Notes under the pieces: model-generated
Databases searched by the model: none
Seen by the model: only the letters and a program-made list of their open reading frames with translations
Told to the model about the DNA's origin: nothing
Made by a program: the position numbers and the translations under genes
IMG/VR virus record: IMGVR_UViG_3300001533_001980
Coordinates: 1 to 52,455 of that record
Strand: one strand, 5' to 3'
From: a virus
Taxonomy: Duplodnaviria; Caudoviricetes
DNA: 52,455 nt
In this document: piece by piece, positions 17,606-43,861 of the stretch
Numbering within the stretch: the first letter of the stretch is position 1
How the letters are laid out: every line of letters starts with the position of its first letter

Positions 17606-17634
17606 TCAGAATCCTGACGCCGTTGTGCAATGAA
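17606..17634 (+). promoter_or_regulatory. TCAGAATC-N11-GTGCAATGAA motif, copy 1
   Basis: Same bipartite motif occurs six times with an invariant 11-nt spacer. Confidence 0.8.
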
Positions 17635-17649
17635 GGGGCGTGAGGACGA

Positions 17650-18784
17650 AATGAGTGAGATGTATCATTGCCCGAATTGCAGAAAAGCAACAGACGCAAG
17701 CCAAATCCTTGTGATGAATGGGATTGACGATGTTTTAACAGTCAAGTGCGCATGTGGCTGGGCGGATACCCCGCTTGGAGTTCCCGCTCCCACTAATTGC
17801 TTTGTTGACTTTTCCATGTCAAATGGAACGTCCATTCGGTGCGTCGCAATTGTCCGTGACGGAATCAGGGTGGGCGTTGGTGCCATTTACGGACTAGAAA
17901 AGAATATACACGAGTGGCGTGCCTTCCAGGTACATGGCTCGTCTGTTACGGCTTTTCGATTCGATACGTCCAAAATATCGGTTATCCAGACGACGAGCAA
18001 GACCGAAACAGATTTTCACGGATGGCTCGTTGGGTTTGGTGGACTGGGTATGTTCAAACTCGGCGCGGATTCGGATACAGTAACCACTGGTAGTACCGAG
18101 TCCCAAGACATATTTTCCGTGTTGACCGTGGAATTAGATGATGGGTCTATTCGCCAATTGAAGTGGGACACTGTCGTATCGTGGTCTGGGCGGCTTATGG
18201 ACGCGGAAAAACAAATCCGTGAATACGTAGACTTAACACCTAAATGGCTATATGTGTGTCCGGCTTGCGGGAATCGGCATTTGAATGCTGATAATTGCAA
18301 CGTAGTCAGACTTGTTTGTGGCGGGTGTTCAGAGACATTTCTGGGAAGTGAGATGTGCCCTGTCTTGGTGGTACAGCCGTTTGTGGACAAAGCGGTACGG
18401 CAATTGATGGGGGCGACGCGGGATAAAAATAAACCACTAGCGGGTTGGGCTACATACGCAGCAGTTAGTTGTTGGATATGTGCATTCCTATGCTTAATTT
18501 GGCTCGCAATGCCGATCATCGCCTTTCTTTTCTTTTGCGCCGGTCTCACAGTCCTTATTATTAAGAAGGAGGTGGGGCTGTTTCCGCAGAATTACATCAA
18601 GAATAATCAGTCATCGATGGATTGTTCTAATTTTCGCAAAGCCCGGTCTGAACTCGAATCAATTCGCGCAAGCAATGCGATACTGAGTAACGATCTAAAA
18701 CCAGTATCTCGACTTGCGCAACGGATACTAAAAGATCAATTTGGAATCAATAAACCGTCGGAAGCTGCTTTTGGTGAAATATGA
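17650..18784 (+). CDS. Zinc-ribbon membrane protein
   Basis: Several CxxC pairs and a C-terminal hydrophobic hairpin. Confidence 0.7.
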
Positions 18785-19296
18785 TTTTTAAGTGCAAGCA
18801 TTGCAACCGTGATGTCAAAGTGCCCGTAGAGTGTCTTGGTTTGGATGGGGAATGTCCTTATTGCGGCATGGCGGTCAAATTCGGCCCGCCGGTTCTCCGG
18901 GAGCCACCTTCTTTATTTAAGAAGCAATTATCTTGCCGCTATAGTCCTAAGATTTTTTTAATTGCCCTACTGGTAGTTGCTGCATCGCTTGTGTGCATCT
19001 TTGAGCCCGATAGCAATACTAATTCTTCGCGCGGCGCATCATTGCGGAGATACAGTGATACGCAACGGTGGAATAAAGCCCGAGTATACGTCCAAGCGTA
19101 TCTAAGGGGTGACCCGTGTGTGAGGATACGCCTGCCGACGCATAACGATGCTTATAGTGATGGAAAAGGAGGTAGTCATTACATGGTGTCGGGATATCTG
19201 GAATGTCAAAACGTATATGGAGCGATGATTCGCAAGCGATATGTCGTTCGGATGGATATGAAGGATTTGTCCCTGTTGGAACTGTCTCTCCGGTGA
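18781..19296 (+). CDS. Zinc-ribbon + TM + extracytoplasmic domain protein
   Basis: CKHC...CPYCG, one TM helix, SGYLECQNVYGAMIR motif. Confidence 0.7.
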   Translation: MIFKCKHCNRDVKVPVECLGLDGECPYCGMAVKFGPPVLREPPSLFKKQLSCRYSPKIFLIALLVVAASLVCIFEPDSNTNSSRGASLRRYSDTQRWNKARVYVQAYLRGDPCVRIRLPTHNDAYSDGKGGSHYMVSGYLECQNVYGAMIRKRYVVRMDMKDLSLLELSLR

Positions 19297-19379
19297 TTTC
19301 CTTTGAACCGTAGTGGGTAAACATTTATTTTCAAAAAGGTGGTTGACACCAAATCGGTTTCGTGATAGGTTCTTGAAAA

Positions 19380-19508
19380 ATGAATAAGCACGCACAAGCA
19401 TTAGGCAGGCTGGCAAAGGGGAAGCCGAAGACTTTGACGAAAGCTGAAATCGACAGGAGAACCAAGCAGCTTGCCGAATCTCGCAAGAAGAGATGGTCCA
19501 AGAAATGA
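19380..19508 (+). CDS. 42-aa basic peptide coupled to tnpB
   Basis: MNKHAQALGRLAKGKPKTLTKAEIDRRTKQLAESRKKRWSKK; its stop overlaps the tnpB ATG (ATGA). Confidence 0.6.
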   Translation: MNKHAQALGRLAKGKPKTLTKAEIDRRTKQLAESRKKRWSKK

Positions 19509-20560
19509 TTGTCCGAACACTCAAACTCAAGCTGACGAAATCCCAGGAGGTCACTCTTGATGGCTGGCTTTGGAATCTTACTGGCGTATGGAATTTTGCG
19601 ATTCGCAAGATAGAGTTGGATGCTCGTGACAAGGTTTACCATTCACAGAATTACCTTCGGAATCTACTCTCTAATCACTCCAGTCGGTTAGGTATACCCT
19701 CTCACACATTGCAGGGCATGCTTTCACAGGCGTATCTGGCGTGGCAAAGATGTTTCCAAAAGAAAGCCAAGAAGCCAAGGCTCAAGGGAAACCGAAATAA
19801 ACTGAATTCCATTCCCTTCCCTGATCCATTACGACCACCCAAGGACAACAGGATTGCCATTCCCGGACTTGGCAAGGTTAGATGCTACAAGCAAGACTTG
19901 CCGGAAGTCAGAATCAAGTGCGGCAGAATAGTAAAGCGGGCTTCGGGTTGGTATTTCTGTCTCTGGATTGATACGGTGCATTCATTCCTCGTTCAAGATA
20001 CTGATAAAGCCGTTGGGATTGATCCAGGTTTCGATACCCTGCTTACCCTGTCCGACGGAACAAAGATAGAGAATCCCCGTGAGTTACGTAAGGGAGCGGC
20101 AAGGCTTGCTCAAGCCCAACGAGAACATGACAAGAAGTTGACAGCAAGGTTGCTTGATCGGCAAGCAAACAGAAGGCGTGACAGAAATCACAAAATCTCA
20201 AGGAAACTGGTCGAAGAAAACAAGACTATTTACTACAGCGATGACAACTTCAAAGGAATGGCAAGGAGATTCGGAAAGTCGGTTACGGAAGCAGGGTTGA
20301 ACCAACTGATTGCTATGATGAACTACAAGGGCACTGCAAGCGGTAGAGAAGTTATTCCAGTCAATTCATTTAGAACCACCATGACTTGCTCGGCTTGTGG
20401 GGCCTTAAGTGGCCCTACGGGATCGAGCGGGCTTGCGGTAAGGAATTGGGAATGTTCTGCTTGTGGGGCAGTTCACGACAGGGATATCAACTCTGCCGTG
20501 ACAGTTCTTAATACTGGGCTGGGAATCAGCCACGAGAGGAGATTAAGCAATGCAGCCTAA
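19505..20560 (+). CDS. tnpB: TnpB RNA-guided nuclease family, atypical RuvC-II
   Basis: GIDPG, TTMTCSACG/CSACG zinc ribbon, HDRDINSA; IYYSDD occupies the position of I..EDL. Confidence 0.92.
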   Translation: MIVRTLKLKLTKSQEVTLDGWLWNLTGVWNFAIRKIELDARDKVYHSQNYLRNLLSNHSSRLGIPSHTLQGMLSQAYLAWQRCFQKKAKKPRLKGNRNKLNSIPFPDPLRPPKDNRIAIPGLGKVRCYKQDLPEVRIKCGRIVKRASGWYFCLWIDTVHSFLVQDTDKAVGIDPGFDTLLTLSDGTKIENPRELRKGAARLAQAQREHDKKLTARLLDRQANRRRDRNHKISRKLVEENKTIYYSDDNFKGMARRFGKSVTEAGLNQLIAMMNYKGTASGREVIPVNSFRTTMTCSACGALSGPTGSSGLAVRNWECSACGAVHDRDINSAVTVLNTGLGISHERRLSNAA

Positions 20561-21533
20561 TCCACATCAGGAATCTGCCGGGACTTGCTCCGGGCGGAGA
20601 TTCAGTTTTGCTTTTTATACAGATACGCACATTACCGGTGTATCCCCGAGGCATCGAGTAGACGATTTCCCGCGTTCTATTCTGGACAAGATTAGAGAGG
20701 TCTATTCCGTAGCGGAAGATCGTGGATGCGAGTTCCTGGCCTTTGGAGGGGATTTTTTCAACACCCACAGGATATTCTCCTACGAGATTCTCGGGAATGT
20801 TATGGATATTGTTGGCGGGTCTCCTTTGCCGACTTATGCCTGTATCGGCGAACATGACCTGTATGGACACAGTCCAAAGACATACGAATCATCGACACTG
20901 GCATTTTTTGCCAAACGGTGTCCCCAATTCACTAATTTATTTAGCCCGGTAGAGGTCGCGACTGGTGTCTGGTTGCACGGCAAGCATGAATGGGAGCCGG
21001 TGGGAGTTATCGATAAGCCAGAACACGCGATTGACCGTGCGGTCTATAATATTCTTGTTTGTCACGAATTGATTACGAATCGGCAGGCTCCTTTTGATGT
21101 AACCCATACGAGTGTCTTTCAGAATTGCCCATACGATCTGGTGGTGTCGGGTGATTTGCATAACGGATATGATCCCCACGAAGTCAATGGGACATGGTTT
21201 TGCAATCCAGGGGCTATTGCACGCCGCTCTATATCTGATATGTGGAGTCCAACCGTGGCAATTATAGAAATTGAAAAGGGCATCCCGCCCATTTTTGACA
21301 TGGTGAGGCTGAAATCCGCTCGCCCTCACGACGAAGTATTCGGAGAGGGCATCGCGGAGGTTGCCTTGACAAAAGAAAACAAGGAGAGGGATGGGCACGA
21401 GTTAGCCGAAGAGTTGATGAAATTTGAAGTAGAATCGGTAGACGTACATGACCTTATCCAGAAAGCCGGGAGGGCAAAAGGAATTAAGGAGCCGGTGTTA
21501 CACTACCTATCTACTAAAAAACCAGAAGAATAA
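20550..21533 (+). CDS. sbcD: SbcD/Mre11-like metallophosphoesterase nuclease
   Basis: TDTH, GGDFF, GEHD, VCHE, SGDLH, NPGAIAR. Confidence 0.9.
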   Translation: MQPNPHQESAGTCSGRRFSFAFYTDTHITGVSPRHRVDDFPRSILDKIREVYSVAEDRGCEFLAFGGDFFNTHRIFSYEILGNVMDIVGGSPLPTYACIGEHDLYGHSPKTYESSTLAFFAKRCPQFTNLFSPVEVATGVWLHGKHEWEPVGVIDKPEHAIDRAVYNILVCHELITNRQAPFDVTHTSVFQNCPYDLVVSGDLHNGYDPHEVNGTWFCNPGAIARRSISDMWSPTVAIIEIEKGIPPIFDMVRLKSARPHDEVFGEGIAEVALTKENKERDGHELAEELMKFEVESVDVHDLIQKAGRAKGIKEPVLHYLSTKKPEE

Positions 21534-42397: not shown

Positions 42398-43861
42398 ATG
42401 CTGAAATCAATTGAACTTTGGGATTTTGAATCGCACGAACACACCTTGCTCGATGGACTATCTGATGGTTTGAATGTCGTCTGCGGACCATCAAATTCCG
42501 GGAAAACCAGTGTGGTCAGAGCCTTGCGGCTTGTTGCCTGCAATGATTTTGATCCAGCTTCCGTGAGGATAGGAGCGAAAAATTGCCGAGTCAGGGTTAC
42601 GACTGACAAGGGGGTCGTGCAGGTCACACGAGGAAAGGATAACCTCTGGGAAGTATGGAATGGCGACGGGAGTGGACCGGCGACTCATACGCTCAGGAGT
42701 CCCGGAGTCGCCGTCGTGCCCCAGGCTTCGGAAGTTATCGGCATAGGGACGGTGAAGCTTGGGGATGTGAATGTCCCCGTCAACATCATGGAGCAGCTCG
42801 AAACTCACTTTATGCTGGCTGGAATTGGGGATGATAAGGCGACTGGATCAGTTCGCGCTCAGGTGATTGATGAAATTTCAGGGCTTTCTGGAATAGAGAG
42901 TGTCATCAAGGCTGTTAGTCTGGATATCCATCGTGCTGGTCGAGAAATCAAGCAGTCCGAGATGCAAATGGGCGAACTCAATGAGCACGTTCACGACGAA
43001 GCCGAAATAGACAGGGAAAACAGGATACTGGATAAAGCCAGTAAGCACCTTGACGAGCAGAAGAAGGCTCTTGAAGTTATAGATGTCGCCAACGACTTTT
43101 TGAGACAGTGCAACTTGCTGGACGAGCAGGTGTCCGATTTGAAGAGGCGATTGGCGGTTATACCTAACGCTAAACTTGCGGAGCAGCATATCGGAAATGC
43201 GATTCGTGCCAACGAAAAAGTGCGTCAGGCTGAAGACTTGCTAGAAAAGTTCAAGTTTGCGAACGGTGAGATTGAAAGAATAGCCAAGTCGATTGCTCGT
43301 ATTCCAGACCATGCAGGGGCTACCGCCCATCTTGATAGGGCTCGGGAGTTCGCCAGCAAGTTGAGAGTGGCAATGGAAATTCTCGACGAGGTGGTCCAGA
43401 TTGACGAAGAACTGGACGTTAAGGGGAAACGGCTGAAGGGATTGTCGGCAGTATCTACCGTATCGAAACACCTTGATGCGGCAGAGCAAGCCGTTAGCAA
43501 ATTGAAAATTGCCAAATCTATACTGGATGGGTGGCAATCGGCAGACGATGAGGTTAGGCTGATTGAGGGTAGGCTGGAAAAATTGTCCGCAGTGTCTGCC
43601 ACGCCAACGTATATCGAGAAAGCAGAAGTGGCTGTCAGAAGGTTGATGGTTGCCGAATCCATACTGGATAAATGGCGATCAGCGGATGAGGAAGTCAGGC
43701 TTCTTGGACGCAGGATTAAGGACAATGGTGAATTACTAGACAGGGCAATTTCAGAACAAAATGAGATACTGAAGTCCATCAAGGTTTGTCCGTTGAATCC
43801 GGCACATCCTGTCTCCGAGGATTGTTTGAAGGGTCTTGAAATAACTTCCCCGTTTCAATAG
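42398..43861 (+). CDS. sbcC: SbcC/Rad50-like ATPase, N-terminal half
   Basis: FESH, GPSNSGKTS, Q-loop EQ, coiled coil, terminal CPL; no signature motif or Walker B. Confidence 0.85.
   Translation: MLKSIELWDFESHEHTLLDGLSDGLNVVCGPSNSGKTSVVRALRLVACNDFDPASVRIGAKNCRVRVTTDKGVVQVTRGKDNLWEVWNGDGSGPATHTLRSPGVAVVPQASEVIGIGTVKLGDVNVPVNIMEQLETHFMLAGIGDDKATGSVRAQVIDEISGLSGIESVIKAVSLDIHRAGREIKQSEMQMGELNEHVHDEAEIDRENRILDKASKHLDEQKKALEVIDVANDFLRQCNLLDEQVSDLKRRLAVIPNAKLAEQHIGNAIRANEKVRQAEDLLEKFKFANGEIERIAKSIARIPDHAGATAHLDRAREFASKLRVAMEILDEVVQIDEELDVKGKRLKGLSAVSTVSKHLDAAEQAVSKLKIAKSILDGWQSADDEVRLIEGRLEKLSAVSATPTYIEKAEVAVRRLMVAESILDKWRSADEEVRLLGRRIKDNGELLDRAISEQNEILKSIKVCPLNPAHPVSEDCLKGLEITSPFQ

Follow-up and report, generated by a model that had tools for sequence, protein, structure and literature searches.

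The DNA analyzed here, hereafter the window, is the entire IMG/VR virus record IMGVR_UViG_3300001533_001980 (Duplodnaviria; Caudoviricetes) of 52,455 bases, estimated to be ~16% of the genome. It carries one copy of a TnpB-only element of the IS200/IS605 type, inserted in codon 6 of a gene for an Mre11/SbcD-like nuclease. We consider it probable that the nuclease is now translated from a start codon, ATG 20550, that the right end of the element has donated, that the start signals used were co-opted for this role, and that the element has since been locked in place. As a structural reading of the sequence, the interruption and the donated start are well supported. The reading starts from three observations, namely the anatomy of the locus, the consensus of the nuclease family, and the recurrence of the arrangement in relatives of the element. 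The features needed first, including the upstream open reading frame (ORF), are as follows.

18781..19296, plus strand: phage ORF of 171 aa (ORF list; phrog_13160, E 1.1e-6)
19293..19308, plus strand: orphaned 5' remnant of the nuclease gene, consisting of GTG, four codons and base 1 of a split Arg codon (its in-frame join to 20605 matches the family consensus)
19304..19308, plus strand: TGAAC (TTGAAC from 19303), presumed target-adjacent motif (TAM) directly 5' of the element (related junctions)
19309..20604, plus strand: TnpB-only IS200/IS605-type element of 1,296 bases, without tnpA (TnpB profiles; right ends of relatives)
19505..20560, plus strand: tnpB, 351 aa from ATG 19505 (or from a start at 19493), ending with TAA 20558-20560 (profile matches)
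20534..20541, plus strand: Shine-Dalgarno (SD)-like GAGAGGAG, 8 nt before ATG 20550 (sequence; related right ends)
20570..20604, plus strand: right-end hairpin (GGAATC...GAGATTCA), read through as codons (fold and related right ends)
20550..21533, plus strand: Mre11/SbcD-like nuclease as now encoded, 327 aa (ORF list, profiles, fold search)

The interrupted nuclease gene

The remnant at 19293-19308 reads GTG ATT TCC TTT GAA C, and the bases from 20605 on read GT TTT GCT TTT TAT ACA GAT ACG CAC. Joined in silico (19308 to 20605), they encode, in frame, M-I-S-F-E-R-F-A-F-Y-T-D-T-H. The original prediction, made from the same DNA before this analysis, had claimed that deletion of 19309-20604 restores the start of the gene, and had quoted, besides these bases, a GAGGAG at 20536-20541 and an ATG at 20550-20552. 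When the sequence was re-read, all of them were in place, and the restored start indeed fits the family consensus, with a slightly longer lead. GTG 19293-19295, the presumed ancestral start of the nuclease gene, overlaps TGA 19294-19296, the stop of the 171-aa ORF, and it was through this GTGA that the nuclease gene was coupled to that ORF before the insertion. The chain of coupling now runs from a small ORF through ATGA to tnpB and from tnpB through an overlap of 11 bases to the nuclease gene.

The family consensus was drawn from a protein search that returned 106 nuclease relatives, 96 of which were aligned, with 10 short or partial ones left out. The distance up to the His of the DxH motif is 10-11 residues in 84/95 homologues, in the pattern M-x-[RK]-F-x-F-[YF]-T-D-x-H, as compared with 27 residues in the window protein. 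Two related phage contigs, L002 and L003, share the gene order of the window (5'-3' exonuclease, two small genes, an 88-aa gene, nuclease, ParB-like gene) and are without the element. The L002 nuclease (72% identity) reads M-R-F-G-F-Y-T-D from an ATG that follows GGGAGAGGG, and the L003 nuclease starts M-A-R-F-G-F-Y-T-D. Related phages thus provide the element-free allele that the original prediction had proposed to look for, although one of the same species was not found: the exact right-end pattern had 0 matches in viral contigs, a distant blastn search against 50,697 phage records returned no match, and contigs of 4 runs held no joint across the element, where it should be considered that contigs drop rare variants, so that absence is not implied. 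Contigs of these 4 runs, which come from 2 studies and include two runs that may have been the origin of the record itself, bridge both junctions of the inserted allele with at most one base changed. The 327-aa protein occurs in identical form on 9 contigs.

As now encoded, the first 18 residues of the nuclease come from the element, and residue 19 is the split codon, changed from Arg (C/GT) to Ser (A/GT). This junction codon is also where the Pfam Metallophos match starts (30 bits against a cut-off of 21.5; Metallophos_2, 30 against 27; both calcineurin-type phosphoesterase). PHROG and PDB sequence searches did not name the protein, and only the fold search named its family. The predicted model (pLDDT 89.9, built on the 96 aligned sequences) has residues 1-17 unstructured and strand 1 from residue 18, and every top match listed by Foldseek was Mre11 or SbcD (E 1e-14 to 3e-11, TM 0.52-0.59), so the downstream protein is, from its modeled fold, safely named Mre11/SbcD-like. 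All 13 of the 13 family-invariant residues are kept, including D25, D68, H102, H172 and H204. No SbcC/Rad50 partner lies adjacent to the nuclease gene in a record of ~16% of the genome. The best AAA_23 (Rad50/SbcC-type) match scores 25.1 bits, below the cut-off of 27, at 42422-42628 in a 494-aa frame 21 kb away, which is a possible distant partner. Of the sbcD identity given by the original prediction, the fold can thus be retained, while the adjacent SbcC partner was not found.

Start signals of the right end and their recurrence in relatives

The earlier claim that GAGGAG and ATG 20550 read in frame through the right-end hairpin into the nuclease agrees with the sequence, as the frame is open over 20550..21533 (327 aa). 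ATG 20550 is, moreover, the sole in-frame ATG, GTG or TTG before the DTH (DxH) motif. The SD-like run derives from conserved His-Glu codons of tnpB, whose stop (20558-20560) lies 8 bases after ATG 20550, and ribosomes finishing tnpB could therefore restart there. No terminator-like site was found between tnpB and the nuclease gene. Two RNA structures overlap these signals.

20541..20562, plus strand: weak hairpin with ATG 20550 in the loop and the tnpB stop in the 3' arm (fold -1.9 kcal/mol)
20455..20604, plus strand: conserved structured 3' region, presumed omegaRNA scaffold, overlapping the tnpB 3' end and the right end (covariation)

The stem at 20541-20562 is kept via compensating changes in L016, L018 and L015 (L and a number denote the related loci throughout). 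Within the larger region, 12/18 predicted pairs are kept through two-sided changes (41 of 69 distinct 150-nt right ends), and Rfam returned no family match at E up to 1 across 19200-20750. We infer both that an omegaRNA is produced and that ATG 20550 is used.

The events that would have led to the present locus can be ordered as follows. The element would have inserted after TGAAC inside codon 6, severing the nuclease gene from its GTG start and the coupling to the upstream ORF. Translation would then begin at ATG 20550, served by GAGAGGAG and/or by ribosomes finishing tnpB, and reading through the right-end hairpin would yield a nuclease with a floppy N-terminal extension of 17 residues. The start signals, not made for the nuclease gene, would be co-opted wherever an insertion at a 5' end happens to be in frame, and only such insertions would survive in essential genes. 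The left-end hairpin would have been lost later, and the element is probably fixed.

Whether such signals are designed or merely at hand was considered with a frame test on 66 distinct right ends, where the outward frame takes the last base of the element as codon position 1. This frame is open for at least 40 bases in 57/66 ends and contains an ATG in 46, while the other two frames contain one in 9 and 6. The ATG positions are scattered (-55, -52, -49, -46, -13, -10 and -7), the RTG at -13 being the bulged base of the hairpin and the ATG at -10 overlapping the tnpB stop. The frame of tnpB relative to the element end is not fixed (30/25/11). We read the start signals as standing features of the right end that were co-opted, and selection for a start-donating role is possible. 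A bolder proposal, which we hold only tentatively, is that the right end is a selected, portable translation-start cassette (SD, ATG in one fixed outward frame, stop-free hairpin) and that the element lives in the first codons of essential phage genes, its loss being lethal to the phage. TnpB binding the same RNA would then throttle the captured gene, and the element would be the protein-level counterpart of an IStron, with a conflict between guide and gene.

The relatives of the window TnpB comprised 11 viral loci, the best 80 of 270 metagenome loci, and 36 loci from bacterial and archaeal metagenome-assembled genomes (MAGs). The comparison of right ends covered 90 viral and metagenome loci, without the truncated L014 and without L007, a repeat of L006. 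With L018 and L020 counted as one site, 57 distinct right flanks had at least 150 bases downstream; in 32 of the 57, a frame of at least 75 aa is open across the junction, and 20 of these 32 have an in-frame start inside the element. Pfam was run on 29 of the 32 open frames and on 10 MAG cases. The original prediction had suggested checking other copies for in-frame fusions, and five further genes were found to read out from element right ends. In three of them the N-terminus of the domain lies 0-3 residues past the junction and the element provides the only usable start: a dCMP deaminase (L018/L020; profile position 2 at residue 22, junction after residue 18), an RNase_T (DnaQ-like) exonuclease (L066; profile position 1 at residue 21) and a sliding clamp (L011; DNA_pol3_beta profile position 2 at residue 5, with the tnpB TGA overlapping the ATG). 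A MazG-like frame (L092) likewise has no in-frame start other than that of the element, and in an acidobacterial MAG (L123) the only usable start of a full-length family-3 glycosidase (GH3) with a signal peptide is a GTG located 13 bases into the hairpin. Among 19 fetched homologues of the deaminase, 13 have M-R-x-[ST]-W at the N-terminus, and in L020 K-R-E-S-W is preceded by 18 residues that the element encodes; the fused form is on record elsewhere at 99% identity. L082 was rejected as a domain-supported case, as its NlpC/P60 match is below the cut-off and its rebuilt empty site has no canonical start.

Other copies lie just ahead of an intact native start (L062 at 0, L064 at +1, L012 at +9, L098 at +11 and L129 at +60). 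Eight insertions, that of the window included, interrupt genes with a named domain, and six of them are within the first few codons. Such clustering is far from random and fits the survival of harmless insertions; a target preference for gene starts is another possible source of it.

At the left junction, an A precedes TGAAC (ATGAAC) in ~12/25 cases, including L013, L027, L040, L045, L058, L060, L072, L073, L090 and L091, often with an SD-like run 5-8 bases upstream, and many copies may therefore be located immediately behind codon 2 of a gene. For the copies at ATGAAC junctions, the right end offers no in-frame start. The ATG-AAC sites of L040, L060 and L073 were not accepted as native gene starts, as the frames downstream have no family match and may be spurious.

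Several points speak against a donated start and should be considered when referring to the results above. The right ends are mutually related, and the frame bias of their ATGs is thus not a set of independent events. An ATG and an SD-like run are also found in copies without a fused gene (L010, beside a tRNA, L024 and L026), so that tnpB codons, RNA structure and the bulged hairpin suffice to explain the start signals. A 226-nt RNA fold was no better than its shuffles (z -1.03), and none of the sequencing runs carrying this stretch is an RNA run. The rebuilt N-terminus has 14 residues up to the His, three to four more than the 10-11 of 84/95 homologues, and, as stated above, the empty allele of the same species was not found. 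Finally, the ATGAAC-site insertions L040, L060 and L073 lack an in-frame rescue start, and L065 and L128 are plain mid-gene disruptions.

The last two cases would also suit a simple knock-out, in which the frame open from ATG 20550 is a matter of chance and the phage does without its nuclease. In-frame starts at the ends of insertion sequences can arise by chance, the chance of 18 in-frame, stop-free codons being ~0.14 by our own estimate, and the SbcC partner was not found adjacent. Nonetheless, we regard a knock-out as unlikely, since the nuclease keeps its full length and every invariant catalytic residue, the insertion falls within the first 6 of ~310 codons, the left end of the element has decayed and the gene has not, the allele is present in 2 studies, and the in-frame arrangement at the extreme 5' end recurs at 5 or more unrelated genes.

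Element ends, TnpB and the predicted guide

The four remaining features belong to the left part of the element and to its right flank.

19309..19342, plus strand: degenerate left end without subterminal hairpin (DNA fold)
19343..19371, plus strand: candidate promoter TTGACA-17-TAGGTT (position kept in relatives; weak)
19380..19508, plus strand: small basic ORF of 42 aa, ATGA-overlapped with tnpB (ORF list; similar peptide upstream of L023 tnpB)
20605..20620, plus strand: presumed guide, the first 16 flank bases, which are codons of the nuclease gene (by analogy with the ISDra2 layout)

From sequence comparison, both boundaries of the element appear to be supported to about one base. The boundaries given earlier, 19309 and 20604, agree with 84 related right ends and with the TGAAC motif at ~25 left junctions. 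On the left, TGAAC (with variants TGAGC, TGAAA and TGAAT) lies 9-12 nt 5' of a CGCAATC hairpin in ~25 distinct related junctions, and we take its role at 19304-19308 to be that of a TAM by analogy with IS608 and ISDra2. On the right, an architecture of GGAATC, hairpin, purine run and TCA is present in 84/90 viral and metagenome loci, the window version stopping at 20604. The base following TCA is A in 28/28 bacterial MAG copies and G in the window; it is nonetheless joining after TCA that keeps the frame in the window, L040, L060, L073 and L091, and the right boundary is thus placed to within one base, at TCA or TCAA. The flank bases are not repeated at the two junctions, so the insertion, located 3' of a fixed short motif, created no target duplication. 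Across the family, reading the usual right terminus, GTTCAA, on the opposite strand gives the target motif TTGAAC (19303-19308 in the window).

The right-end hairpin folds as DNA at -8.5 kcal/mol (z -2.35; 6/200 shuffles as good). The left end of the window (19305-19345 folded) reaches only -0.8 kcal/mol, with 193/200 shuffles folding as well, as compared with -11.1 kcal/mol and 2/200 shuffles for the left end of the relative L024. Excision of the TnpA type is therefore unlikely, and the element, judging by this end, is probably locked in. The 42-aa ORF is the sole one between the left junction and tnpB, so the window element has no tnpA; a Y1 tnpA is carried by relatives such as L006, L062, L064, L081 and L090. 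Among the relatives, L020 has no left end whatever, only a TCAAGCGAAG remnant, and L021 is alike. In L055, one right end is followed immediately, from position 1475, by another set of 3' hairpins with a right-end hairpin, apparently a solo right end arranged in tandem.

These same features bear on whether tnpB might be a domesticated phage gene, an RNA-guided homing or exclusion nuclease fixed in the operon, whose overlap with the nuclease gene would be ordinary packing evolved after fixation. The left-end hairpin is missing in the window, in L011 and in L018/L020/L021, the window has no tnpA, the G+C of the element equals that of its flanks, and the tnpB of L020 (2501-3556) is ATGA-coupled to an upstream phage ORF of 138 aa (2088-2504). 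However, the TGAAC motif and the orphaned gene start at the left junction mark an insertion event, and the start signals, being common to relatives in other contexts, predate the insertion. We find domestication very unlikely as a separate explanation, and it refines the account of a donated start more than it excludes it.

The TnpB protein matches NCBIfam guided_TnpB (189.4 bits against a cut-off of 100), the Pfam families OrfB_IS605 and Cas12f1-like_TNB (PF07282 and PF01385), PHROG 506 (E 7.5e-67) and the solved ISDra2 TnpB (PDB 8bf8; E 2.4e-18). Conservation was counted over 88 family members. D173 (88/88) and D327 (86/88) are kept, as are the four zinc-finger Cys; in the alignment, the two Asp correspond to the first and third residues of the catalytic Asp-Glu-Asp triad of ISDra2 TnpB. 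The position of the canonical RuvC-II Glu (VEDLN motif) is Ser in 80/88 and never Asp or Glu. This would suit a nuclease-dead, RNA-guided DNA binder of the TldR kind, for which the overlap with the gene start serves regulation and not homing. We think this scarcely probable. Two residues beyond the Glu position, D247 is invariant (88/88) and may stand in for the Glu, the C-terminus is not truncated, and the target at the element's own locus is preceded by the right end and not by TGAAC, so self-binding is not expected. With both Asp, the zinc finger and D247 kept, nuclease activity of TnpB is therefore likely, as far as residues can tell.

The position and length of the guide at 20605..20620 are taken, as our assumption, from the ISDra2 omegaRNA layout. 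By that analogy, the target would be TGAAC followed by ~16 flank bases from 20605, i.e., the uninterrupted allele; together with TnpB activity, we infer homing into such empty alleles, those of competing phages included. L002 is not a predicted match, as it lacks TGAAC and has three mismatches (by eye). The missing left-end hairpin and the Ser at the RuvC-II Glu position temper the homing part of the earlier reading.

As for the candidate promoter, TTGACA is in the same place in L015, L024, L026 and L023, although TTGACA-17-TAGGTT failed a consensus promoter scan. The 42-aa ORF has no family match in Pfam, PHROG and NCBIfam searches. Small ORFs coupled to tnpB are found in L015, L024, L026/L028, L030, L035, L036, L043, L045 and L076. 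In at least 9 relatives the product is a zinc-ribbon microprotein (C-x-R-C-G-H...C-P-K-C-K-S-P-Y-W), ATGA-coupled to tnpB, and in L076 it is ribbon-helix-helix-like. Such ORFs may relate to the Arc repressor of the preprint 10.64898/2026.09.24.754181.

Flanking genes of the family vary. One element is followed by a LAGLIDADG-domain ORF of 727 aa (L013:3309-5489), and the right flank of L010 adjoins tRNA-like sequence (by eye). L002, otherwise syntenic, lacks two ORFs that the window has at 17630-19296, namely the 171-aa phrog_13160 ORF and one of 384 aa that encodes a membrane segment and zinc-ribbon-like motifs, which marks the stretch before the nuclease gene as variable. At 18738-18739, the contigs of all four runs break off, with alternative continuations on either side, which suggests a variant form of the phage near the junction of ORFs 17630-18784 and 18781-19296.

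Comparison with known systems

Cas12 descends from TnpB, whose genes are among the most abundant in prokaryotes. Their persistence in gene-dense genomes such as those of phages is partly explained by homing and, for IStrons, by splicing. A right end that restarts the interrupted gene would, if true, be a third and very cheap way of making an insertion harmless, and it would explain why such elements press against gene starts. A single RNA segment would then provide the scaffold of the guide and, for an essential gene, the site where ribosomes land, a coupling that we predict. For annotators, there is the warning that N-termini beside IS200/IS605 ends may be coded by the element.

The idea of homing is already in print in the review PMC13565253, as well as in PMC10055086 and PMC10690162, and the first of these lists co-infecting phages as targets of transposon homing. 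According to PMC10690162, IStrons imply a conflict between making the guide RNA and expressing the host gene. A right end that donates a start codon was not found described in the literature searched, where supplementary TnpB-locus tables, outside the search, might list such junctions; it does not appear in passages of PMC13565253, 10.64898/2026.02.14.705889 (cyanophage tnpB) and 10.64898/2026.09.24.754181 (Arc).

Compared with IS200/IS605 elements (ISDra2, IS608 and the tnpB-only IS1341 type), the window element is alike in its TnpB with RuvC and zinc finger, its insertion 3' of a short motif without target duplication, its right-end hairpin and its structured 3' region overlapping the end of tnpB. 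It differs in having neither tnpA nor a left-end hairpin and in the shifted RuvC-II acid, and, unlike these elements as described, its right end is the translation start of the interrupted gene. With IStrons, which combine a group I intron with an IS605-type TnpB element, it shares a position within a gene whose product would not be destroyed and, by implication, the conflict between guide RNA and host-gene expression noted above. The original prediction called it functionally analogous to them, which is fair insofar as the insertion would be made harmless without splicing. It is, however, not an IStron: membership was rejected, as there is no ribozyme, i.e., no group I intron, and a search of 19200-20750 returned nothing from Rfam at E up to 1. 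Rescue here would, moreover, be at translation, with an altered N-terminus, and would be confined to insertions in one frame at the very 5' end of a gene.

As with the Seg and Mob homing endonucleases of T-even phages and with "non-restorative transposon homing", a nuclease gene is wedged among or into conserved phage genes and could, by analogy, cut element-free alleles of a co-infecting phage. Unlike with Seg and Mob, recognition would be RNA-guided, and self would be told from non-self by the presence of the insertion. The window TnpB resembles TldR in being a phage-borne TnpB homologue whose RuvC motif is changed and whose presumed RNA overlaps the adjoining gene. Unlike TldR, it keeps two of three catalytic Asp and the zinc finger intact without truncation, and its presumed guide is still the flank of the element.

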